This document shows positions 3,846 through 36,724 of a stretch of 64,000 nt of DNA, piece by piece; the stretch's first letter is position 1; each line of letters opens with the position of its first letter. A model generated the notes under the pieces. It was not told the DNA's origin and did not search any database. It saw nothing but the letters and a program-made list of their open reading frames with translations. The stretch comes from an uncultured Lachnospiraceae bacterium. Its GTDB lineage: Bacteria; Bacillota; Clostridia; Christensenellales; UBA1242. The stretch is taken from positions 16,188-80,187 of the forward strand of contig CAYSOX010000002.1 of assembly GCA_964432825.1 (NCBI GenBank), in the 5' to 3' direction. A program made the position numbers and the translations under genes.

Positions 3846-4949
3846 ATGAAACTTATTTGTGATGGGTTTGAACTTAGTGAAGCAGTAAACACTGTTTTAA
3901 AAGCTACTGCTATTAGGTCTACAAATCCAATTTTAGAAGGCATTAAACTTAAAGCCGAAAATGATGTTTTAACTTTACAAGCAACTGATTTGGAGTTAAG
4001 CATTGAAAAGCGTATTGTCGCTGATGTTAAAATAGAAGGTGAAGCCGTTGTTGCGGGTAGATTCTTTGCCGAACTTATCAAAAAACTTAATAATGAGAAA
4101 ATTGAAATTACAAAAAATCCAGATGAAAATAAAATTAAAATCAAATATACCGACTCTGAAGGATATCTTCAAAGTTTACCAGTAAGTGAATTTCCTGAAA
4201 TAAAGCAAATTGAAAGTGCTGATTCTATAAAAATCAAACAAAATGATTTTAGAGATTTGATTTCAAAAACCATTTTTAGTGCATCTTACGATGATGCAAG
4301 GCCTATTTTAAAGGGCGTTTTAATGGAAGTAACCGAAAATAAAATAACGGGAATTGCGCTAGATGGCTACAGAATGGCTGTTTGCTCAAAGCCAATACAA
4401 AGCACTTCTTCATTTACATATATTTGTCCAGCAAAAAGTTTGGCAGAAATAAGTAAAATTATTGGCGACGATGATGAAGAGTTAGAAATCTTCATTCAAA
4501 AGAACTACATTTTAATAAATGTAGATGAAACAAAGATTATTACAAGACTTCTTGATGGTGACTTTATTAATTATAAGCAAGTTATTCCAGTTTCTACTTC
4601 TACCATTGTGACGGTAGCAAAGAGATTTTTGGAAGAAGCGATAGAGCGCGCAAGTTTGCTTGCAAGATTAAATAAAAACAATCTTATAACTTTTGATATA
4701 AAAGAGAACTTGATGAGCGTTTCTAGTTCATCCGAACTTGGAAATATCACCGAAAAAATTTCTATTTCTGCAAAAGGAAAGGATTTGACTGTTGCATTTA
4801 ATGCAAGATATTTCAGCGAGAGTTTAAAAAGCATAAGTGACGAGTATGTAAATATTAACTTTACCTCTCCAATTGCACCTTGCACAATAACCGCTACCGA
4901 AAACAGTGAATATTTATATTTAATTTTACCAGTAAGAATTGTAAACTAA
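3846..4949 (+). CDS. dnaN: DNA polymerase III beta sliding clamp
   Basis: About 367 aa with three-domain clamp-like sequence (MKLICD..L..AV..V; LDGYRM; ..YLILPVRI at the C-terminus). RBS AAGGAG. Canonical position after dnaA. Confidence 0.97.
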   Translation: MKLICDGFELSEAVNTVLKATAIRSTNPILEGIKLKAENDVLTLQATDLELSIEKRIVADVKIEGEAVVAGRFFAELIKKLNNEKIEITKNPDENKIKIKYTDSEGYLQSLPVSEFPEIKQIESADSIKIKQNDFRDLISKTIFSASYDDARPILKGVLMEVTENKITGIALDGYRMAVCSKPIQSTSSFTYICPAKSLAEISKIIGDDDEELEIFIQKNYILINVDETKIITRLLDGDFINYKQVIPVSTSTIVTVAKRFLEEAIERASLLARLNKNNLITFDIKENLMSVSSSSELGNITEKISISAKGKDLTVAFNARYFSESLKSISDEYVNINFTSPIAPCTITATENSEYLYLILPVRIVN

Positions 4950-6662: not shown

Positions 6663-7075
6663 AGAAAAGGCATTTATTAGAGAGTATGCTAATTAAAGTT
6701 TTTTGCGAACAGTTGGTTTTTAAAAAATAGTAATATTGCATTTTCAAAAAATAATTAAAGCCGTTGTTTTAAAAAAGATGCTAAAAGTTACTAAAAATTA
6801 AAAAAATTAAACTATTGAATTAAACTCGAAAAGTCGTTTAACTTTTTGAAATTATACCCCATTTTATTAAGATTATTTTTATGTAACAATCGATGCAAAT
6901 TTTTTATTTTTAAATAAAAAATAGAAATTTATAAAATGAGTTTTTAACAAAAAAGAAGTTTATTGTTAAAAACTATTGATTGCCAAAATTTAGTTTTTAA
7001 CATAATTTAAAAACTTATTAAAAACAAAATTTGAATATATTTGCAATAATTAATAAAACTAAAATTAAAAAAATT

Positions 7076-7102
7076 CTATCACGGCAGAGTGATAGTTTTT
7101 TT
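7076..7102. terminator. Intrinsic terminator, possibly bidirectional
   Basis: Stem CTATCAC (7076-7082) pairs with GTGATAG (7089-7095), loop GGCAGA, then T7. An A-run lies upstream. Confidence 0.6.
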
Positions 7103-9649
7103 ATTTGCAAAAAATTTTTTACTAATTTTTTAATTAAACAATGCAAAAACAATATCAAAATTTTATTGGAAAAAATTTTTATAAGTTTAAATTTTTAGTT
7201 TTTTTAAACCTAAAAGTAAAGTTAAAACAAAAAAAAATATTTTAAGAAAGAGGTGATTTTTTATAAAAACAACTTTATATAAACCCAGCAAAAAACATAT
7301 TTATAAAGGTCAAAAAAAGTCAAAAATATCTAGTGTTATCCAAAAACAATTTTAGTTAATTATATATTTATTTAATAATTTTATAAATTGATTTTTAACA
7401 AGTTAATATATATATTGTTAAAAAATAATTAAACAAAAAGTTATTATTGTATTAATAATCGCTTCTGGCAACTAGTCTGTTGTGATTAAAATTTAAAAAC
7501 AGAAATTTAAACAAATTGTGGTGGTTGGTTTTTTTAAAGTGGAAAAAAAGTCTTAAAACTGATGTTGAGATAAATTGCAATGTAATGTGTTTTGATATGA
7601 TAAGACAAATTTAATCCCCTAATTATACATAGACTGGATATTATCGTTTGAAGTGGAGAAAAAAACCTAAAAACCAATGTTAATACAAATTGTGATAATA
7701 GAGATTATTGTAGGTTAAGTTAATTAGTTTTTAAAAAGACAAACAAATAAACTTTTTGCATAACGAAAATAATATTCAAGGCAGAAAGAGTGCGAATCTG
7801 TTGGGTGGTGTGTTTTAAAAGTGAAAAGCGATACTAATTGCGATATTTAATAATCGGTCTGTGGTGGTAGTGAATAGTAGCAAAGTTAGTTAAACTTTAA
7901 CACTGTGTAGGATATAAACCTCAAAGTGAGAGAATTGTTGCAAATGTTTATATATTCAAAAATTGAAGGATAATACACGGTGTGATAACTTGTGACCACT
8001 AGCGTGGAGTGAATGCGATTATAACCAATAAACTTTAAAACAACGATTTATATATTGCTTGTTCGCGGAAGGTGAACTGAAGGCATTTTTTTATTTTTAG
8101 CGATTTTAGTAACTTAAACTATGAAGATAAGATTTTTATTTTGTAGTGGTGACGGCACTAAATTTAAAGAAATGTAAAAGAATTGCTTTGTGGATGTGTG
8201 AATAAATAATCAACATTGTTAAAAACTACTTTATTAAAACTATTTTTTTAAGAGAATATTATAAAATAAAAACAAAATGGCGATTGGAAAAATATTAAAC
8301 TGTTCCGCAAAAAAGATTAATTTTAAAGTTGGATAATATTTATAAGTTTAAAAAATATGATTAAGTTTTTGTTTGGTGATAAATTAATTTTTAAGTGGAA
8401 ATAAGTGGATTATATGCCCACTAAAGGGTTAAAAATTTAAACAAAGTAATTTATGCTTTAGTGTTTAAACTGTCAAATTTGGACGGAATAAGGCATTAAA
8501 AACTACCCTATTATAAAATATTTAAAAAAATTAATTTTGCGGTCTTTGCCTTTATTTTTAAGAAGTTTAGTGGGGTTAAAATTTGCAGGCTGTGACACAA
8601 AATCGTGCAAAGCAAAAATTTATAACTTATAATAAAAGTAAGCTTAAAAGAAGGAGGAGAAGGCTATAAAACAAAAAAAACATAAAACCAATCAAAAAAC
8701 TTATAACAGATTACTTGAGGTTGTAAGAATTCAGCCCGAAGGGATAAAACACTACAGCAGATGGTTTTACATATAGTAAAAACAAAATTTTTAATTTTAT
8801 AGGTGCAAAAACAATAAATTTTGAGGATAACAAAAATTTATTTTGCTAGTACATGTTATGTGATTAAAAGCATAAAGAAATTAAACTTCTGGTTGAAACA
8901 TGGATTCCCTACAAGTTGCCCCAAAGGGTCAAAATATGAAAAATTTTACATTTGTTTGATGTTACACAATTCTGCCCCTGCGTAATAAGGCAAACGCTTT
9001 ATTTTTATATTAAGAAAGTAAAATTTTCGCGTTGTTTAAAATTTGGTGTTATTGAACCGAAGAGTTAAATTTTGACAGTTAGTGTATGATCCTTAACGCT
9101 ATGAATTTACTACTGAATATGTTTAATTTTCCCGCTTATGATAATATGTGGTTATGTGGCATAGAAGTTTAAATAAAATAAACTTTTAGTTGTGGCTTAG
9201 GTTTTTACAAGTTGTGCTAAGTTGTTGCGGAAACTATTGCCATTAACCACTTTAAAAGGTGTAATTGCGTCACTAAAAGCTATCTTATGCCAATATATCA
9301 AAATTAAGGAGAACGAATGAAAAAGAATAAAAAAATCAAAATTTATAACGACAGCTAAATTGATGTTGTGAGTGTATTATATAGCACTAAAAAAAGACTT
9401 AAATAAAGCATAAAGTTGCAAAGAATAAAATAAAATTTACAACGACAATTGAATTATTAATGCGGTTAATTTTAGAAATATGAAATAAAGATTGTAGACA
9501 AGGCTTTAATGCTTGTACAAATTTAAAAATTCAAACATTAAAAAACAAAATGTTGGATAAAACATGGGGTACATTTACAAGATTGGACAATGTTAATAAA
9601 TTAACCAGTTATTAATTTACAAATCAATTTTTATTTGAAATAAAACCAA

Positions 9650-9960
9650 AAATGCGGTTTTAACAAATTTTATTTTAACTGTTAGAAATTAAAGGTTTTA
9701 GGGATAGACATAAATAACTAACACAGAAATATAAAGAAAACAAGTGTAAATCCTCTAAAAACTAAACAACTTTATTAGCTTCACTTAAATATATATTACG
9801 AAGCCGTTTTTATCTGAAGAAAACAAAAAATTTTTAACAGTTTTTTAGTAGACTGAAATTAAAGGTTTTATAAAAAAACAAAAAAAACAAACGCAGAAAT
9901 AGAAGGCGAAATCAATCATAAATTCACCGAAATAAAAAGTAAAAACAGCCACAAAATCTA
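9650..9960. repeat. Diverged tandem duplication of about 170 bp
   Basis: The exact 16-mer GAAATTAAAGGTTTTA occurs at 9685-9700 and 9855-9870. AC(A/G)CAGAAATA occurs at 9721 and 9891, the same 170-nt offset. Flanking TTTTAAC(T/A)GTT strings are also shared. Confidence 0.75.
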
Positions 9961-10229
9961 GAGTTTTTTGTGGGATAACCAAAGAGTTATGGAGAGATAA
10001 AAGTTTCAAAAAGGGGCAAATTTGGGGCTGATTTTAAACCTGCCATAAACTCACAAAAAGCAAAAGCACAAAAAAGTGCAGTCAATTTGGAGTTAAAAAT
10101 AAAAATTAGTTTTTTGGAATTAAAAGCATAAAAATTGCTTAATCGCCTAAAGTAAAAAAAATAAAATAACACCTTTTAAGAAAACAAAACCCCAAAATAA
10201 TGAAACCCTTAAAAATTATAAATTAACAA

Positions 10230-10268
10230 AAAAAATAAAAAGTCTAAACAACTTGCGTTTAGACTTTT
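10230..10268 (-). terminator. Intrinsic terminator downstream of jag
   Basis: A perfect 12-bp stem, AAAAGTCTAAAC (10238-10249) with GTTTAGACTTTT (10257-10268), and a 7-nt loop. The A-run on the + strand gives a T-run on the minus strand. Confidence 0.6.
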
Positions 10269-10322
10269 AAATACTTTTAAAAAATTGTTTTGCGCTAAAA
10301 ATTAATTACTTATTTGTAAAAA

Positions 10323-11083: not shown

Positions 11084-12214
11084 TTAAAACTTTTTCATAA
11101 GTCCTCGATAGGTGGTCATTTGAGGTTTTGCATTCTTTTGCCTTTTTAGTTCGTGTAAAGCCTCTTTTTCAAGATAGGCTAAATACTTCGCTTCTTCCTT
11201 TTTGGTCATCTTTTCTGCAATTAGTCCTAGTAAGTAGTTTGTGATTAAACTCATTATTGAACTTGTTAGTAGATATAATCCGAAAGCCGCAGGGTTGGTT
11301 AAGGCAAAAATTATTGAAATAATAGGCAAAATTAACTTCATAATTTTCATGGTGCTGTTCATTTGCTGTTCGGTTTGAGAAGGCGTTACATTGATTTGTT
11401 TTGCCTTTTTAGACTTGTTTGAAAGGTCGGCAATAATTTGAGATGCAAAACTCAATAAGCCTGAAAGAAGTGCTATGATAAAATATCCATTCCAACCGGT
11501 GTGTTTATCAATAACTGGTGCCATAACCAAATTATATCGGTCGGGATTTATATAATTTTCGCTAGTTTCTACAAAATATGTATTGTAATATTTTTTGTCG
11601 TTTGCAGATTTGGTTGCAGACATTAATGAATCATAATCGGGAACACTTTTTACACTTGAATCATTCTTCCAAATGTTTTTAACCCATAACCAGTGGTTAT
11701 TTTTTGTGATTTCATCGTATTTTTCGTTTAATATTACATTAATTTCTTCATTTGAAAGATTTTTTGCTTCGCAATCGGCATAAGTATCATTTAAAATTGT
11801 GTATTGCTCAACCATTTTATATGCACTTATGTTTCGAAGAGTGTTGAAAAATGATATAAAAACAAAAAGTGTTAATACAATGTTTAATAATGAAAATAAA
11901 CAAGTTCCGACCATATTATAGCCTTCTCGCTTATATAATGCTTGTACTTCACGATTTGCACGCTCTCTATTGTTTGCAAATTTGGTATTAATTTTTTGGA
12001 TTTGTCCAGTAAGGCGTTTTTGAATAAAATTGTTTTTTCTTGAAGAATATCGGTTGTATAAGTCTAGCGGAACCATTATAAGTTTTACAAATATTGTAAA
12101 CAAAATGATTGACCAGCCATAATTTACAACAAAACCTTCAATAGCCTTGTATATAGAAGCCCAAAGCCCAGTTGGGGCTGAAACTTCCGCTAAAAAGTTT
12201 GTTATATTAGCCAT
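11084..12214 (-). CDS. yidC: Membrane protein insertase YidC/SpoIIIJ (Oxa1 family)
   Basis: Multi-pass membrane protein containing KLIMVPL..YNRYSSRK and MKIMKLILPI, in the conserved rnpA-yidD-yidC-jag context. Confidence 0.9.
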   Translation of the reverse strand: MANITNFLAEVSAPTGLWASIYKAIEGFVVNYGWSIILFTIFVKLIMVPLDLYNRYSSRKNNFIQKRLTGQIQKINTKFANNRERANREVQALYKREGYNMVGTCLFSLLNIVLTLFVFISFFNTLRNISAYKMVEQYTILNDTYADCEAKNLSNEEINVILNEKYDEITKNNHWLWVKNIWKNDSSVKSVPDYDSLMSATKSANDKKYYNTYFVETSENYINPDRYNLVMAPVIDKHTGWNGYFIIALLSGLLSFASQIIADLSNKSKKAKQINVTPSQTEQQMNSTMKIMKLILPIISIIFALTNPAAFGLYLLTSSIMSLITNYLLGLIAEKMTKKEEAKYLAYLEKEALHELKRQKNAKPQMTTYRGLMKKF

Positions 12215-26766: not shown

Positions 26767-27819
26767 TTATCTATGTAAAATGTTATAAATTCGGTCTAAG
26801 TCGTCTTTTGAAAAATATTCTATAATAATTTTCCCTTTGCGGTCGGTTCCTTGAATGGTTGCTTTGGTTGAGAAAATGCGTTGCAATTGTGCGGAAAAAT
26901 CTTGCAATTCCAAACTTTGAACATAGGTTGCTTTACGCTTGCGGGCTTCGGTTAAGTTGGACATATTTTGGATGTATTTTTCCAACTCTCTAACACTAGC
27001 CTTGCTTTGCACAGCCATTAAAGCCGTTTTTAATTGAAGTTCGCGGTCCTCTATTCCGACTAAAATTTTTCCGTGACCAGCAGACAACTCGCCACGCTCG
27101 ATCATTTTAACAATTTCAGGGCGAAGTGCCAAAAGTCTTAGGGTGTTTGTGACTGCCGTTCGGCTTTTTCCGATTTTTTCGGCAATTTCTTCTTGGGTTA
27201 GGTTAAACCTTTCCACAAGTTCACGAATTGCGAAAGCCGATTCAATTGGGTTTAAATCTTCTCTTTGAAGGTTTTCAATTAAAGATATTTCGGCAATTTC
27301 TTGTTCGGTGTAACGCTTTATGATTGCAGGAATGGTTTTAAGCCCTGCAAGTTTGCTAGCCCTAAAACGCCTTTCACCCGAAACTATCATATAGCGGTCG
27401 CCATTTTTAACCAAAATGATTGGTTGAATAACTCCGTGTGCTTTAATGCTTTGAGCAAGTTCGTTTAGTGCACCTTCATTAAAATTTTTACGCGGTTGAC
27501 TTAAATTTCGGTCAATTAAAGCAAGAGGAATTTCGCGTGGGGTTGGGTCGCCGGTTGGAACTTCAACGATTTTCTCGACAATCTTTTCAACGGGTTTTTC
27601 AACGATTTTCTCGACGATTTTTTCAACTGGCTTCTCGACGATTTTCTCGACGATTTTTTCTACCGGTTTTTCAACAATCTTTTCAACAACCTTGGTTTCA
27701 ACAATCTTTTCAGGTTCGTTTTTGTCGTTTGTTTTCTTTTTTGGGGTAAGTGTTAAGTCTTCCGGCTCATCGTCAAGCCCTCCAAAAAGTGAATCTAAAC
27801 CTCTTCCGAGTCTTGCCAT
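26767..27819 (-). CDS. parB: Chromosome partitioning protein ParB/Spo0J
   Basis: N-terminal LGRGLDSLFG, the ParB box SQPRKNF..GVIQPIIL..GERRFRA, and an HTH (EIAEKIGKSRTAVTNTLRLL). Confidence 0.93.
   Translation of the reverse strand: MARLGRGLDSLFGGLDDEPEDLTLTPKKKTNDKNEPEKIVETKVVEKIVEKPVEKIVEKIVEKPVEKIVEKIVEKPVEKIVEKIVEVPTGDPTPREIPLALIDRNLSQPRKNFNEGALNELAQSIKAHGVIQPIILVKNGDRYMIVSGERRFRASKLAGLKTIPAIIKRYTEQEIAEISLIENLQREDLNPIESAFAIRELVERFNLTQEEIAEKIGKSRTAVTNTLRLLALRPEIVKMIERGELSAGHGKILVGIEDRELQLKTALMAVQSKASVRELEKYIQNMSNLTEARKRKATYVQSLELQDFSAQLQRIFSTKATIQGTDRKGKIIIEYFSKDDLDRIYNILHR
27558..27715 (-). repeat. In-frame tandem repeat (12/36-nt period) encoding (VEKI/VEKP)n in the ParB N-terminal linker
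   Basis: The protein reads VVEKIVEKPVEKIVEKIVEKPVEKIVEKIVEKPVEKIVEKIVEV. In the DNA, GATTTTCTCGAC and GATTTTTTCAAC units repeat. Confidence 0.85.
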
Positions 27820-29283: not shown

Positions 29284-29360
29284 GCTCTCGTAGTTCAACT
29301 GGATAGAGCGTTCGGCTTCGAACCGAAATGTTGCGGGTTCAAGTCCTGCCGAGAGCGCCA
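29284..29360 (+). tRNA. tRNA-Arg (anticodon UCG) with encoded CCA
   Basis: Folded by hand. Acceptor stem GCTCTCG/CGAGAGC, D stem GTTC/GAGC, anticodon stem TTCGG/CCGAA with loop CT-TCG-AA, T stem GCGGG/CCTGC with loop TTCAAGT, discriminator G, then CCA. An extended -10 (TGTATAAT) lies at 29265-29272. Confidence 0.9.
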
Positions 29361-29402: not shown

Positions 29403-29700
29403 ACTTATTAACTATTAATTATTCATTTTTCGCTATTCGCTATGAACTACTCACTAGTTACTTATTTATTATTTACTATTTACTATTCGCCGTGCACTAC
29501 TTACTGGTTACTTATTCGCTATTCATTATTCGCTATTCACGCTTTACTATTTGCCATATGCTACTTACTAGTTACTTCTTCACTATTCACTATTAACTAT
29601 TTGTTACATGCTACTCACCATTTGTTTATTCATTATTCACTATTTGTCTATTCATTATTTGTAACTTACTATTCACCATTCATTGTTTGATAAACCATTA
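29403..29700. repeat. G-poor degenerate heptamer tract (about YRCTATT, about 40 units) with a higher-order unit of 55-60 bp
   Basis: CTATT/CTACT/CTAGT/CTTAT strings recur every 7 nt (for example 29433, 29440, 29447, 29454, 29461). I count 22 G in 29401-29700. Two overlapping reading frames stay open (track ORFs 29381..29596 and 29442..29690), which is typical of a repeat rather than a gene. Confidence 0.8.
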
Positions 29701-31054: not shown

Positions 31055-31867
31055 TTAAAGAATTGAATTTTCTTCCAAGTGGTTGGTAGTTTTAATAAAA
31101 TTGTTTGTTGGAATAATTTTTGCAAGATTGTTATTTAAAAATTCGATAATTTCTTGGTCGTCTTCACGGATTTTAGAATTATTGAAAGAGGCGTTAAATC
31201 TTTGTGCAAGTTTTTCAAGTTTTCCGCCACCCATTGCTTCTTTGCGATGTTCAACTTTTGGGTTTGTAGAGTTTGTAGTGTAATAAACTGGACTAGTTTG
31301 TAAGGCTTCTTGATAACTTTTGAAACGATTTTTGCCTAGAACCATATGCGAAGAAGTTATTTTTTTAAATAGTTTATAATTTGCGAATTTGCTTTCGGTG
31401 GCGTTTAAATATAGTCGTTCATCCGTTTGTAATTGAATGTCAAAATATTCAAATTTACCGAAGCGGTTTCTGGTAAGCCCGCGGTAACTAATTTTTTGGG
31501 TTGTTCCATACATATTGCCGTTATTTAGTGCTGGAGTTTCGGTACTTTCGATGTCTACCACAAAAGGGACACCTTTAAACATTAATATATTCTGCTCAGA
31601 GTATTGGTTTGCGCCGTTTTTGTGACTGTTTTTTAATGCGAACTTATTTTCGGCATTTAAATAATTTTCGATATAGTCGGCATATCTTTCTTCGGCGGTT
31701 GTTTTAATGTGGATTGTTTTTTCATCCTCGGTTGCTTCCTTAACTTTTTGTTTAAAAAATTTTGGAAGAATTCCGCCTTCAATTCTTATATTTGCAATGC
31801 TTTTTATAAATTTATTTTTAAACAAGCTATTGTTATAACTTGCAAGTCTTTCTTCTTTCTTTTCCAT
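31055..31867 (-). CDS. Hypothetical protein
   Basis: RBS AAGGGTG. 270 aa. No recognisable motif. Confidence 0.6.
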   Translation of the reverse strand: MEKKEERLASYNNSLFKNKFIKSIANIRIEGGILPKFFKQKVKEATEDEKTIHIKTTAEERYADYIENYLNAENKFALKNSHKNGANQYSEQNILMFKGVPFVVDIESTETPALNNGNMYGTTQKISYRGLTRNRFGKFEYFDIQLQTDERLYLNATESKFANYKLFKKITSSHMVLGKNRFKSYQEALQTSPVYYTTNSTNPKVEHRKEAMGGGKLEKLAQRFNASFNNSKIREDDQEIIEFLNNNLAKIIPTNNFIKTTNHLEENSIL

Positions 31868-32132
31868 AATTGTTCACCCTTTATTAATTTTAGGGTTCGA
31901 TTATATCATACCAATTTAAAAATTTCAAGATGTATAACCAAATTTACATCCAAACAATGTTTAAAATTGAAAAAAATAAACAAAAAAAATATTGCTGTTT
32001 AATCAACAACCTGCCAACTTTTCGCAAAATATACTAATTTCAAAACAGCCTCAAAATTGCCCCTTTTTGGCAGTTTAATGTTTTTATGAATAAACTATCG
32101 ACGACTACCTAAAAAGTGGCGAAATTTTATTC

Positions 32133-32150
32133 TTCGAACATATGTTCGAA
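32133..32150. promoter_or_regulatory. Perfect 18-bp palindrome TTCGAACATATGTTCGAA (candidate protein-binding site)
   Basis: Read directly from the sequence. It lies in the ORF-free stretch about 190 bp before the first parS site. Confidence 0.4.
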
Positions 32151-32340
32151 AAGTAAAAGGGCTTGCAGTTGGTCTTTTCTGTTTCAAAACCCGTTGTGTT
32201 TTAGGTGATGTTTGGTGTTTGGCTTATATAATTCGAAGCGATTTTACGAATGGTTTTATAGATTTTGCGACCTGCCTTTTTAAGTTTTTGATGCCATTAT
32301 TTAATCCGTGAAGTGCCGAAAATTTTGGATGAAATAAAAA

Positions 32341-32356
32341 TGTTTCACGTGAAACA
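32341..32356. promoter_or_regulatory. parS: parS site, perfect 16-mer TGTTTCACGTGAAACA
   Basis: Exact match to the palindromic parS consensus bound by chromosomal ParB/Spo0J. Confidence 0.9.
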
Positions 32357-32383
32357 TTTTGTTCTGAGACGACAACTTACTTG

Positions 32384-32399
32384 TGTTTCACGCGAAACA
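32384..32399. promoter_or_regulatory. parS: parS site with 1 mismatch (TGTTTCACGCGAAACA)
   Basis: 15 of 16 positions match the consensus. It lies 43 bp from the first site. Confidence 0.8.
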
Positions 32400-32672
32400 A
32401 TTTGGCGGGTTCTTGTAGGTATGTGACAATTAAAAGGCTTAAAAGTATCAGGTTGGATATTGCTTTAATGTTTATGTTGGGTTCGTTTACCCATGGCCGA
32501 AAGAGGGCTTATTTATTAGTTACCTTTCATATGGAGTTTTTATTTAATTAAAATTATCCCATATCCCCTACCTTTGGTTGTTTCGTTACAGAATGGCTTA
32601 CTGGGGCATTTTCGCTAATTTAAATTAAACCCAAAGGGCTTTAAGATGCATTTAGTATTGTATTTAAGTAAA

Positions 32673-32688
32673 TGTTTCACGTGAAACA
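32673..32688. promoter_or_regulatory. parS: parS site, perfect 16-mer
   Basis: TGTTTCACGTGAAACA with the palindrome extended by flanking AA..TT. A left half-site (TGTTTCACG) follows at 32716. Confidence 0.9.
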
Positions 32689-32995
32689 TTTTGCATATTT
32701 GTTGGTAAATAAAGGTGTTTCACGATTGGATTTACCTTTTAAAATAAGCGATTTGCTGTGCGAGTAAGCGGTTTAGTGTAAATGTTTACATTGTATATAT
32801 AGATAATGTTATTGATTTATTTGTAGCAAGATATTTATTATTGTAAGACTTATAACCATTAGAGGAATTGGTTAATATGTAGCAAATTGTTAAAAAGTAT
32901 TTTAATAAGCCAACAAAAAAAGTTATTAAGCAATATTAGATTTTGCAAATTAGGTGAATTGTGAAACAATAGCAAATAAGTTAAGCAAAAGCCAA

Positions 32996-33011
32996 TGTTT
33001 CACGTGAAACA
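32996..33011. promoter_or_regulatory. parS: parS site, perfect 16-mer
   Basis: TGTTTCACGTGAAACA. A right half-site, GTGAAACA, lies at 32961-32968. Confidence 0.9.
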
Positions 33012-33273
33012 TTGGCTTTTGATGTGTAAAGTAGTTTAAATGAATAAATGTATAAATTGATAAATAAATAACAGCAAGCAATTTTCAGTTTAAAAACCAT
33101 CTTGTTAAAAAGCATATTTAAAAAATATGTGGCATATATTGTATTCGAAATAAAATGCGACAAATTAAACAAAAATGTTATGATAAAACCATAAATACAA
33201 AAAACAAAGAATGTGGCTTATAAAATTATGCCCAAAAGTGAAACATCTAACCAATAAAAGAATTTAGTAAAAA

Positions 33274-33289
33274 TGTTTCACGTGAAAAA
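33274..33289. promoter_or_regulatory. parS: parS site with 1 mismatch (TGTTTCACGTGAAAAA)
   Basis: 15 of 16 positions match. A right half-site, GTGAAACA, lies at 33238-33245. Confidence 0.75.
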
Positions 33290-33540
33290 CTAGTTTATTT
33301 AAAATTTAAAAACTGAAAAAGCGAAGTGTGAGATGTGCCCAAAATTGAAGCAAACAAAAAGCAATTTAAACAATAAAATCTTAAACAAAAAATTTAAAAA
33401 GTATTAAATTATTAAAAAATGCAATGAAGTGCCAGATATCAAAAAGTTGAATTTTAACAATTAAATATTGATTGCCAAATAAATAGTTTTTAACAAAAGT
33501 TGAACATTTGTTAAAAGCCAAAAATTATAATATTCCAAAA

Positions 33541-33556
33541 TGTTTCCCGTGAAAAA
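33541..33556. promoter_or_regulatory. parS: Degenerate parS-like site with 2 mismatches (TGTTTCCCGTGAAAAA)
   Basis: 14 of 16 positions match. It is the last member of the cluster. Confidence 0.55.
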
Positions 33557-33728
33557 TTGTTAAAAAAGCAAAAAAATTTCACAAGAAAAAAACAACATAT
33601 TCCTTTAAAATAAAGCCATTTAATTTTAACTATTCGCAAAATATTATAAACTAAACACAATAAAAATCGCAAAAAAATAAAGCCTGCTAGATAGATTTTT
33701 TGCAGACTTTATCTATTTATTTTGATAA

Positions 33729-34490
33729 TTAACGAGTTGCAATCCATTCATTGATGGTGGCTGAAATATCATAATTTTTATCAATTAATTTAAAGGCAAA
33801 TTCGCTTATAGGTTTTCCTAAAAAAGATTCGTTCAAACGATTAAAAAAACCGTCAAACATTGATACGCCTCTAAAGATTGATAAAACCAAGCAAATTGTA
33901 AATAAAAGTTCAACCGCCGACAATAGTCCAACCAATCCGCCCAAAGTTCGGTCAATTTTGCTTAAAATTTTGGTTGATTTTAATATTTTTCGTTCAAGTC
34001 TATTTAATATCCAAATTATAATTGAAAGAATAATAAATATTGCGATGAAAGTGCATACAATTAATATTAGGGTGGAAAGTGATTTGCCGACTATTTCAGC
34101 AAGGGTGATGGATTCGGTATTTGCCAAAGAATCTGGTGTTATGTTTAATAGCCCCGAAATTAATCCGCGGAAAATCTTTGGAATATTTGCTTCTCCCAAG
34201 GCGGTTTTAACAAACTCATTCAAATTTTCGCTAGGTATAGTTTTTAGGTTCACGCTAAAATTTTCGCCTAGTCCCACCGCCCAATCGCTACATTTTTCAA
34301 ACACGCTGGTTCCAAGTTTGGTTTTGTTTGCAAGAAAGTTTGCTACCGGCTTACTTAAAAAAAATGAGATAGCAAGTTTCACAAAGAAACCGCAAAATCT
34401 AGTGAGTGACCGAATAAAACCACTAAAGATGCCTATAATTATCGATAAAGCAACAATAACAATAATAATTATATCAATATATGTAAACAT
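33729..34490 (-). CDS. CvpA-family membrane protein
   Basis: The N-terminus YIDIIIIVIVALSIIIGIFSGFIRSL and the multi-TM layout resemble colicin V production protein family members. It is longer than typical members. Confidence 0.65.
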   Translation of the reverse strand: MFTYIDIIIIVIVALSIIIGIFSGFIRSLTRFCGFFVKLAISFFLSKPVANFLANKTKLGTSVFEKCSDWAVGLGENFSVNLKTIPSENLNEFVKTALGEANIPKIFRGLISGLLNITPDSLANTESITLAEIVGKSLSTLILIVCTFIAIFIILSIIIWILNRLERKILKSTKILSKIDRTLGGLVGLLSAVELLFTICLVLSIFRGVSMFDGFFNRLNESFLGKPISEFAFKLIDKNYDISATINEWIATR

Positions 34491-34645: not shown

Positions 34646-36724
34646 TTGGAAAACAATATGAATTCGGGAGAGCGATCAAGATATCAACAAAAATCTCCCC
34701 TTTTAAAAAATATTTTAAGCATTGCATTTTTGCTTTTGATATGCGTGTGCTTATTCTTTTTGACAACGTCGGCGGGCAAAAAGGAAATTGGCGAGGCGCA
34801 GTTCCGCGAAGATATCAAGGCGGGCAAAATTGAATGCGTTGAGTTTACATCAAACTATATTGCCGTATATTATAAAAATGATGCAGGCGGAGATGTTTGC
34901 TATTTAGGTCCGGGGCTAAGCGAGTCGGTAAATGAAATAGTTGACAAATATAATTCTGAAAATCCGCTAACTGATGTAGATAAAATAAGCCCAATTGTTT
35001 CAGATTTTTCGTGGAGTTATATATTATTCCCTGTAATAATGATTGGTGGAGCAATTTTAGTTATATTTATTTTCAGCCGACAAATTGGAAAGTCAAACAA
35101 ACAAAGTATGGATTTTGTTAAAAACCGTGCAAAAATAGCACTAAGCAATGTTCGTTTTGCCGATGTTGCAGGTGCAGACGAAGAAAAAGAAGAAGTTCGT
35201 GAAATTGTGGAGTTTTTGAAAAATCCTCAAAAATTTACCCAAATGGGTGCAAGAATCCCAAGAGGCGTGCTGATGGTTGGACCTCCTGGAACGGGTAAAA
35301 CCTTGCTTGCAAAAGCAATTGCCGGTGAAGCAAATGTTCCCTTCTTTACAATAAGCGGTTCAGATTTTATGGAACTATTTGTTGGTGTCGGTGCAAGCCG
35401 TGTTAGAGACTTGTTTGACAAAGCAAAGAAATCGGCACCATGTATTGTATTTATTGATGAAATTGATGCTATTGGTCGTCAACGCGGAACGGGAATGGGT
35501 GGCGGAAACGACGAAAGAGAACAAACTTTAAACCAACTACTTGTGCAGATGGATGGTTTTGAGACCAACGAGGGTGTTATAATAATTGCGGCAACAAACC
35601 GTGTAGATATCTTAGACCCAGCATTGTTAAGACCGGGAAGATTTGATAGACAGGTGCATATCCATGTTCCAGATGTTAAGGGAAGAGAAGAAATATTAAA
35701 AGTGCATGGCAGAAATAAACACTTCGCAAGTGATGTAGATTTTAAACAAATTGCCAGAGTTACAAGTGGCTTTACTGGTGCCGAACTTGAAAATTTATTA
35801 AATGAATCGGCAATTTTAGCAGCGCGTGACAATAAGCCATTTATTGATATGCGAGATATTAGCGAGGGTATAGATAAAGTTACAATGGGACCTCAAAAGA
35901 AGAGTAGAATTGTGACAGAAAAGGACAGAAAGATAACAGCCTTCCACGAATCAGGTCATGCCGTTGTGGGTCGTCTTGTAAAAAATTCCGACCCTGTGCA
36001 CGAAGTTTCGATTGTTCCGCGTGGTAGTGCTGCAGGTTATACGGTTAGTAGGCCGGATTCAGACGACACACATATTACAAAATCTAAGTTAAAAGATGCA
36101 ATAACAATGATGCTTGCAGGCAGAAAGGCAGAAGAAATATTTATTGGAGATTACACAACGGGTGCATCTAATGATATTGAGCGTGCTACAGGTATTGCAA
36201 GAAAAATGGTTGTAGAATGGGGAATGGGTGAAAAAACCGGACTTATGCATTTAGGTAGTGAAAACTCATACTTTTTGGGTAAAGATTATATGGAAAGGGT
36301 CACTTACTCCGACCATTATGCAAACATTATTGATGATGAAGTAAAACAAATTTTAAAAGAATGCGAAAAGAATGCTGAAGAATTGATAGAGGGTAACAAA
36401 TCGGTAGTTGAGACAATGGCAAATGTGTTGTTGCAAAAAGAAACAATATATTCAAACGAAGTTGACTTAATTATGAAAGGTGCAAGCGTTGATGAAGTTG
36501 TTGAAAAAATAAACCAAACACTTGCAAAACCTACTGAAGAAAAGATTGAAGGCGACGACGATGTTGTGGACGGGCTAAGAACCAACCGTATAAAGACAAC
36601 ATCTTCACCAAAAACTTGCGGAGAGGAGAAACTTTCACCGTCAGACACCTTAAAAAGTGATGAAATTAGCGAAACATTTTCTGACGCAATTGAAAAGACC
36701 GAAAAAGATAAAAGGAAAAAATAA
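34646..36724 (+). CDS. ftsH: ATP-dependent zinc metalloprotease FtsH
   Basis: [18 protein letters not shown], the SRH segment, and the zinc site HESGHAV. The start is TTG at 34646 (RBS GGAGG) or ATG at 34658. Confidence 0.95.

Follow-up and report, generated by a model that had tools for sequence, protein, structure and literature searches.

What is a dense cluster of parS sites doing in a gene-free stretch some 30 kb from a replication origin, and how usual is such an arrangement? The question is raised by a 64,000-nt stretch of DNA from an uncultured Lachnospiraceae bacterium (assembly GCA_964432825.1, contig CAYSOX010000002.1, positions 16,188 to 80,187), hereafter the window, in which an initial annotation had noticed a centromere-like array of copies of the 16-mer TGTTTCACGTGAAACA, the parS consensus bound by the partition protein ParB/Spo0J, at 32341-33556. 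We conclude that the array is very probably a chromosomal ParABS centromere, that is, a multi-site zone for the loading of ParB. Five observations carry this conclusion: the sites themselves, their non-random clustering, their non-coding context, the conservation of the sites and not of the spacers between them, and the canonical sequences of ParA and ParB encoded nearby.

A mismatch-tolerant search for TGTTTCACGTGAAACA over the window recovered six sites in the 1.2 kb of the array, three of them perfect, two with one mismatch and one with two mismatches, and every coordinate of the site list in the initial annotation was reproduced (Table 1). The parS pattern that they match to this degree, TGTTNCACGTGAAACA, is a 16-bp palindrome. 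Outside the array the sole match with at most two mismatches in the 64 kb lies at position 551 (two mismatches). The chance level was taken from 100 dinucleotide-preserving shuffles of the window, which gave a mean of 0.07 matches and reached seven matches in none of the 100. The half-site 8-mer (TGTTTCAC/GTGAAACA) is likewise concentrated here, with 13 copies in the window where 2.7 are expected; 11 of these fall within the array and the only two outside it are at 1502 and 42795. The three lone half-sites that had been annotated stand at exactly the positions given for them, and the site-to-site spacings of 43, 289, 323, 278 and 267 nt were also correct. The lone half-sites and the one-mismatch site at 32384 all have a strong site at a distance of 35-43 nt, which gives the array the look of successive strong-plus-weak doublets; we propose that the companions of the strong sites, namely the degenerate sites and half-sites 35-43 bp away, are weaker or in decay. 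Binding of ParB to half-sites (GTTTCAC) has been documented (PMC7022226, PMC10419367).

To follow the array in related organisms, we fetched relatives through their ParB and counted the parS sites in their loci. Several Logan contigs (L006, L015, L018, L019) end at parS palindromes, and longer ENA and GTDB contigs were used instead; as short-read de Bruijn assemblies break exactly at these palindromes, the array is likely absent or split in many metagenome-assembled genomes (MAGs). In one relative (L015), whose ParB is 95% identical, the array sites and their spacing are identical to those of the window. Relatives with 85-87% identical ParB (L009-L011, L016, L017) carry six perfect parS within about 1-1.2 kb, in the gap between a homologue of the 270-aa gene that adjoins the array here and the cvpA-ftsH pair, and a relative at 65% (L012/L013) packs five perfect ones into 530 bp, with parB on one side and cvpA on the other. 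The spacers of the window and of the 85-87% relatives were not alignable with BLAST or MAFFT, and the spacings of the relatives differ (117-290 nt) at equal site number. The palindromes, in turn, are retained and extended to AATGTTTCACGTGAAACATT, the flanking A/T being present at 24-28 of 30 perfect sites. Since the sites are kept while the spacers cannot be aligned, selection acts on the sites themselves, and in the orthologous loci these appear to be under purifying selection. Moreover, the window and L015 have an inverted parAB operon when compared with L009, L012, L016 and L017, and the array keeps its place beside cvpA-ftsH; it lies downstream of parB in the relatives and beyond the inverted parAB in the window. 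Neither the window nor the ±10 kb scanned in the relatives contains a further parS with at most one mismatch outside the array.

The ParA/ParB pair encoded on the left of the array is canonical by sequence. The N-terminus of ParB carries the peptide MARLGRGLDSLFG, of the LG(R)GL type, which we take to be the ParA-interacting and ParA-stimulating peptide. Between this peptide and the domain that binds cytidine triphosphate (CTP) sits a (VEKIVEKP)n linker encoded by an in-frame 36-nt tandem repeat (3.7 copies, 27562-27693). ParB has 350 aa here and 299-338 aa in the relatives, so the length of the linker varies. The CTP-binding box GERRFRAS (the GERRFRA motif) and the box ENLQREDLNPIE are both present. 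The protein scores 166-177 bits against ParB/Spo0J structures and 142 against Noc, and its helix-turn-helix (HTH; GKSR...NT...LAL...SAGH) aligns without gaps to that of Bacillus subtilis Spo0J. In Caulobacter numbering, R173 and G201 are reported to be shared by all ParB proteins and replaced by Q and R in Noc, which has lysines at positions 179 and 184 (PMC7383237). At the equivalents of 173, 179, 184 and 201 the ParB of the window has R, T, A and G, which is the parS type and not the Noc type, and failure of this ParB to bind the motif, an outcome that the initial annotation had allowed for, therefore seems unlikely. No other ParB-family gene was found in the 64 kb.

The gene order of the window is that of an origin region: dnaA, dnaN, jag/khpB with yidC and rnpA, mnmE and mnmG, ssb and ndk, parB and parA, followed to the right of parA by tRNA-Arg, two genes of unknown function, the array, a cvpA-like gene, ftsH and housekeeping genes. 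The GC skew switches sign at about 2 kb, beside AT-rich repeats upstream of dnaA, which places oriC at about 1-2.2 kb and hence the array about 30 kb into the right replichore. The first parS site is 3.7 kb from the start of parA and 30.1 kb from that of dnaA, in agreement with the placement near parAB and about 30 kb from dnaA proposed initially. A DnaA-box scan found boxes enriched over the whole window, with no clustering in or near the array. The ParB proteins closest to this one stem from metagenomes of the human gut and from MAGs of uncultured Clostridia, and some of their loci are on single contigs of 639-675 kb. This points to a genome that is very small, about 0.65 Mb at about 31% GC, and the window would represent roughly one tenth of it. 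For this small-genome lineage of gut Clostridia, a complete canonical ParABS system is seen and the array would locate its centromere.

The array lies in a 1.86-kb interval (31868-33728) that had been described as gene-free, and both an open reading frame (ORF) scan and the pattern of substitutions bear this out. Under translation table 11 the interval contains no start-to-stop ORF of more than 63 aa and no stop-free frame of more than 78 codons wholly inside it. In the comparison with L015, an 81-83% identical relative, the substitutions in the gap show no codon-phase bias (p about 0.5), and the bias is present in the adjacent real gene (42/15/22, p = 6e-4). None of the long ORFs of the window ends in TGA, so we also tested TGA as a sense codon in the gap. 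The one candidate for a hidden gene, a 182-codon frame at 32003-32551, was rejected, being without codon-phase bias against L015 and partly absent from L009 and L016. A structured RNA was discarded as well: Rfam was empty at gathering thresholds, and at E <= 1 it returned only implausible eukaryotic miRNA and plastid matches on the palindromes. Only about 68% of the window is coding, and 17 of its gaps measure at least 400 bp; a long gap by itself is therefore unremarkable in this stretch.

The proximity of the sites to the origin and to parAB, their conservation and the canonical ParB sustain the initial view that this is a centromere-like array for chromosomal ParB. At such a centromere, ParB dimers would recognize each 16-bp parS (effectively 20 bp in this clade) through the HTH and, with CTP bound, would form closed clamps there that slide away over the flanking DNA, following the CTP-dependent clamping and sliding described for ParB (PMC7053999, PMC8367383). 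Six closely spaced loading sites would then yield a single large partition complex of ParB and DNA, at about 30 kb from oriC, over which ParB may spread and on which ParA would act via the N-terminal peptide of ParB, separating the sister origins. By analogy with the loading of SMC at parS in other ParABS systems (PMC7333895), the complex probably also loads SMC. The initial annotation had gone further and read the array as a single ParB loading hub. What stands of this is that the array is the sole cluster within the 64 kb, roughly a tenth of the genome, which is consistent with one hub.

Several points weigh against the array being a centromere of this kind. No smc or scpAB gene was found in the 64-kb window, which makes the SMC-loading step pure analogy, and we infer the binding and localization of ParB at the array in this organism from sequence. 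The scan covers about a tenth of the genome, and further parS elsewhere are possible. Degenerate copies make up three of the six sites here, whereas the six-site relatives keep all of theirs perfect, so perhaps not all six are functional. Finally, the DNA-contacting R204 of Caulobacter ParB is a K in this ParB, although this change is conservative.

It had also been suggested that a 280-320 bp unit was duplicated repeatedly to give the array, in tandem like the iterated centromeres of plasmids, with later decay accounting for the irregular spacing. In favour of this, the spacings of 289, 323, 278 and 267 nt are roughly similar, and the weaker partner 35-43 nt from each strong site does hint at a repeated doublet module. 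Self-alignment, however, gave this idea no support. Pairwise local alignments of the five inter-site segments and the left flank, in both orientations, stayed within the shuffled range (z < 2.2 for every pair of inter-site segments), and the sole z = 3.6 involves the left flank, where it reflects a repeat of a flanking element (motif A, below) and not an array unit. Tandem Repeats Finder detects no long-period repeat in the region, the companion is downstream of the first two strong sites and upstream of the next two, and the relatives have quite different spacings at the same site number. Plasmid iterated centromeres such as F sopC are compact, non-coding and multi-site, and consist of true tandem repeats in fixed register with a motif of their own. 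Here we found no head-to-tail units in fixed register: the one element that recurs is the 20-nt palindrome, the spacers bear no relation to one another and the motif is that of the chromosome. We therefore hold a duplication origin to be quite unlikely; any such history is no longer detectable, and independent gain and turnover of sites in a permissive zone fits at least as well. Since compact, non-coding, multi-site centromeres are typical of plasmids, and there is a tRNA gene as well as a repeat tract at a distance of 3 kb, the array might also be taken for what is left of an integrated plasmid or mobile element with a centromere of its own. This is highly improbable, as the motif is the chromosomal parS consensus, synteny with cvpA-ftsH is kept down to 65% ParB identity, the GC content of the array matches its surroundings, and no integrase, replication gene or phage family turned up among five nearby genes of unknown function that we scanned.

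It is likewise unlikely, on balance, that the array is mainly an operator or silencing element from which spread ParB represses the 270-aa orphan gene, cvpA and ftsH, instead of or besides its part in segregation. Such an effect would be within reach, with the promoter-like site of the orphan gene (31928-31900) within ~0.4 kb of the array and the 3′ end of cvpA within ~0.2 kb, and it would have a precedent in Pseudomonas aeruginosa, where ParB represses promoters beside the intergenic sites parS3 and parS4 (PMC7022226). Autoregulation is also conceivable in most Lachnospiraceae loci, where the cluster is directly upstream of parA. In the window, however, the array is 3.7 kb from parA, with the tRNA gene and two other genes between them, and the inversion of parAB relative to the relatives, with the array left in place, indicates that the array is not tied to one promoter. 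Besides, loss of Spo0J in B. subtilis leaves the expression of parS-adjacent genes unchanged (PMC7022226). Barely credible, in turn, is that a Noc-like paralogue active in nucleoid occlusion, and not ParB, binds the sites. The protein does score 210 bits on the NCBIfam noc model, but this is below the model cutoff of 315; the sites match parS and not the Noc-binding site (NBS) variant, the specificity positions hold R and G in place of Q and R, and the permissive ones have no K (PMC7383237), so that the residues read R/T/A/G and not Q/K/K/R. The single ParB-family gene of the window also leaves no paralogue there for this role.

How usual, then, is a centromere of this form? We surveyed 80 Clostridia loci from GTDB species representatives, 42 of them with at least 18 kb of context, counting parS at up to one mismatch. 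At least two parS lie within 10 kb of parB in 41 of the 42 loci, the modal cluster being a doublet, and in six loci (14%) a stretch of 1.3 kb holds five or six sites. Neighbouring sites are 35-60 bp apart in 44 of the 146 spacings from all 80 loci. In the 72 loci outside the immediate clade of the window, 89% of the parS sites are outside ATG-initiated ORFs of at least 100 codons, which cover 83% of the DNA, and most are directly upstream of parA. Doublets ~35-60 bp apart directly upstream of parA recur in L026-L095 (Lachnospiraceae and other Clostridia), and one locus (L058) has six perfect parS in 370 bp, of which five are spaced at about 56-58 bp. The survey suggests that compact intergenic parS clusters beside parAB are the usual arrangement in Clostridia, often with doublets of 35-60 bp and sometimes with five or six sites. 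The array shares with these loci the clustered, mostly intergenic sites near parAB and the frequent 35-60 bp doublets; it differs in that the modal doublet is directly upstream of parA, whereas the clade of the window has five or six sites beside cvpA-ftsH. The initial claim that a compact intergenic array is unusual did not hold, as clustered intergenic parS near parAB are the norm in the loci surveyed here and denser arrays have been published. The array is at the upper end of cluster size in the class and is not exceptional, and centromere clusters of this kind are already known. The claim had been framed as a contrast with model Bacillota. In B. subtilis the parS sites do occur one by one across the origin-proximal region, most of them inside genes, and for that species the contrast is sound; it fails for Clostridia and for bacteria in general. 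With clusters being usual in Clostridia, the dispersed intragenic pattern of B. subtilis is a poor reference for the class.

Outside Clostridia, Caulobacter crescentus and P. aeruginosa also have several parS clustered near ori that nucleate one ParB complex, but their clusters spread over several kb or more, partly within genes, whereas all the sites of the window are in one 1.2-kb non-coding stretch. Caulobacter has at least five clustered parS and about 10 kb of ParB occupancy (PMC5815017), and P. aeruginosa a cluster of four (PMC4368675). B. subtilis, with its about 10 parS sites (PMC7022226), shares the identical consensus, and the DNA-binding helices of its Spo0J are closely similar to those of the ParB described here (6SDK). 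Myxococcus xanthus resembles the window in having many copies of the same 16-bp consensus in a short stretch beside parAB, reported as a '22-repeat parS stretch' inside a 3.12-kb probe (PMC3899335) or, by another count, as 24 parS upstream of parAB, about 30 kb from ori (PMC3778016). It differs in its phylum, its 9.1-Mb genome and its about four times more numerous sites, the window having six in 1.2 kb of a ~0.65-Mb genome, 3.7 kb from parA and beyond an inverted parAB. About 20-23 clustered origin-proximal parS are known from Streptomyces coelicolor and Listeria innocua, and why parS sites cluster is a question that has been put in review (PMC7333895). A plausible answer offered is that a new parS is tolerated only near an existing cluster (PMC5815017). 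The array has a modest bearing on this question and on that of what sets the number of sites (PMC7333895), and it leaves the understanding of how ParABS works unchanged.

Table 1. Coordinates of the parS array, its surrounding elements and the neighbouring genes in the 64-kb window.
Feature	Position	Strand	Description
parS site 1	32341..32356		perfect TGTTTCACGTGAAACA; extended 20-nt palindrome AATGTTTCACGTGAAACATT
parS site 2	32384..32399		one mismatch, TGTTTCACGCGAAACA; 43 nt after site 1, its doublet partner
parS site 3	32673..32688		perfect
Lone half-site TGTTTCAC	32716..32723	+	43 nt after site 3; decayed doublet partner
Lone half-site GTGAAACA	32961..32968	-	35 nt before site 4
parS site 4	32996..33011		perfect; centre of a 36-nt perfect palindrome, 32986-33021
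Lone half-site GTGAAACA	33238..33245	-	36 nt before site 5
parS site 5	33274..33289		one mismatch, TGTTTCACGTGAAAAA
parS site 6	33541..33556		two mismatches, TGTTTCCCGTGAAAAA
Non-coding gap	31868..33728		bounded by the 270-aa orphan gene and cvpA; free of ORFs and Rfam families, without codon-phase bias
Motif A, left copy AACTTTTCGCAAAATA	32016..32031	+	conserved 16-mer bracketing the array
Conserved hairpin AAATTGCC-CCTTTTT-GGCAGTTT	32054..32076	+	part of a 30-nt element whose other copy is at 10004-10035 (-)
Perfect palindrome TTCGAACATATGTTCGAA	32134..32151		core CGAACATATGTTCG matches the Gram-positive LexA operator; conserved in relatives
Motif A, right copy AACTATTCGCAAAATA	33628..33643	+	same orientation as the left copy; 87 nt beyond the start of site 6
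dnaA	2245..3651	+	AT-rich repeats directly upstream; GC skew sign change
dnaN	3846-4949		adjoins dnaA in the origin region
parB, 350 aa	26767..27819	-	ParA-binding peptide, linker, CTP motif, HTH, C-terminal dimerization domain
parA/soj, 265 aa	27826..28623	-	Walker-type partition ATPase; AAA_31/CbiA match
270-aa lineage-restricted orphan gene	31055..31867	-	adjoins the array in close relatives too
cvpA-like membrane protein gene	33729..34490	-	with ftsH, conserved right-hand neighbour of the array
ftsH	34646-36724	+	right-hand neighbour of the array beside cvpA

The gap also holds conserved elements other than parS (Table 1). Motif A, AACT(A/T)TTCGCAAAATA, has only two exact copies in the 64 kb, and it brackets the array in direct orientation not only here but also in L009 (12332/13682), L016 (12892/14465) and L017 (12326/13676). 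We know of no convincing match between it and the CodY, Spo0A, DnaA, sigma-54, cre or NBS consensus. Just inside the left copy, the core CGAACATATGTTCG of a perfect palindrome is the sole perfect copy in the window of GAAC-N4-GTTC, the Gram-positive LexA operator consensus (PMC4234289). In L009, L015, L016 and L017 the arms of this LexA-box-like palindrome are invariant and its centre is variable. It lies about 200 nt upstream of the predicted promoter of the orphan gene and is abutted by a possible minus-strand -10 (TAAAAT), read by eye; no lexA gene was found in the 64 kb. Both motif A and the palindrome are conserved in the relatives with 85-95% identical ParB. A 30-nt hairpin element, CAGCC(C/T)CAAA(A/T)TTGCCCCTTTTTG, occurs at 32045-32072 (+) and 10004-10035 (-), and its array-side copy is conserved in the relatives.

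From the conservation and position of motif A and of the LexA-box-like palindrome, the array could be pictured, within its genus-level clade, as a delimited centromere cassette, with the motif A pair as its boundaries and the palindrome just inside the left one. We regard this as a speculative and very doubtful proposal. If it were true, candidate roadblock proteins at motif A or at the palindrome might confine the sliding of ParB and thereby protect the neighbouring essential genes in a tiny genome or, alternatively, these elements might couple centromere activity to the DNA-damage response.

Among the neighbours of the array, the 270-aa orphan gene is preceded by a strong promoter-like site. 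Its product had no Pfam, NCBIfam or PHROG match, and only three homologous clusters were found among 1.84 billion representative proteins. It evolves fast, with 27% identity between genera (the L009 homologue is at 11339-12184, minus strand), and its AlphaFold model, with a mean predicted local-distance difference test (pLDDT) of 36, is unusable.

TGA stops are strongly avoided in the window and in its close relatives. The ORFs of at least 200 codons in the window end in TAA (28), TAG (9) and TGA (0), and the TAA/TAG/TGA usage is 90/10/2 in close relatives against 587/190/148 in Lachnospiraceae loci (loci compared besides the window: L001, L009, L012, L014, L016, L020-L023). Conserved genes contain no in-frame TGA, and there is no evidence of TGA reassignment. 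For a genome of ~0.65 Mb, the window has a low coding density. A further gap, 3.66 kb at about 25% GC, extends over 6663-10322 between a 229-aa gene and jag/khpB and has no ORF of more than 67 aa, also with TGA read as sense. Directly 3′ of tRNA-Arg(TCG) (29284-29360), a tract of degenerate heptamers (TATTCAC/TATTCGC/TATTTAC...) occupies 29406-29662, with a higher-order period of about 50-64 nt.

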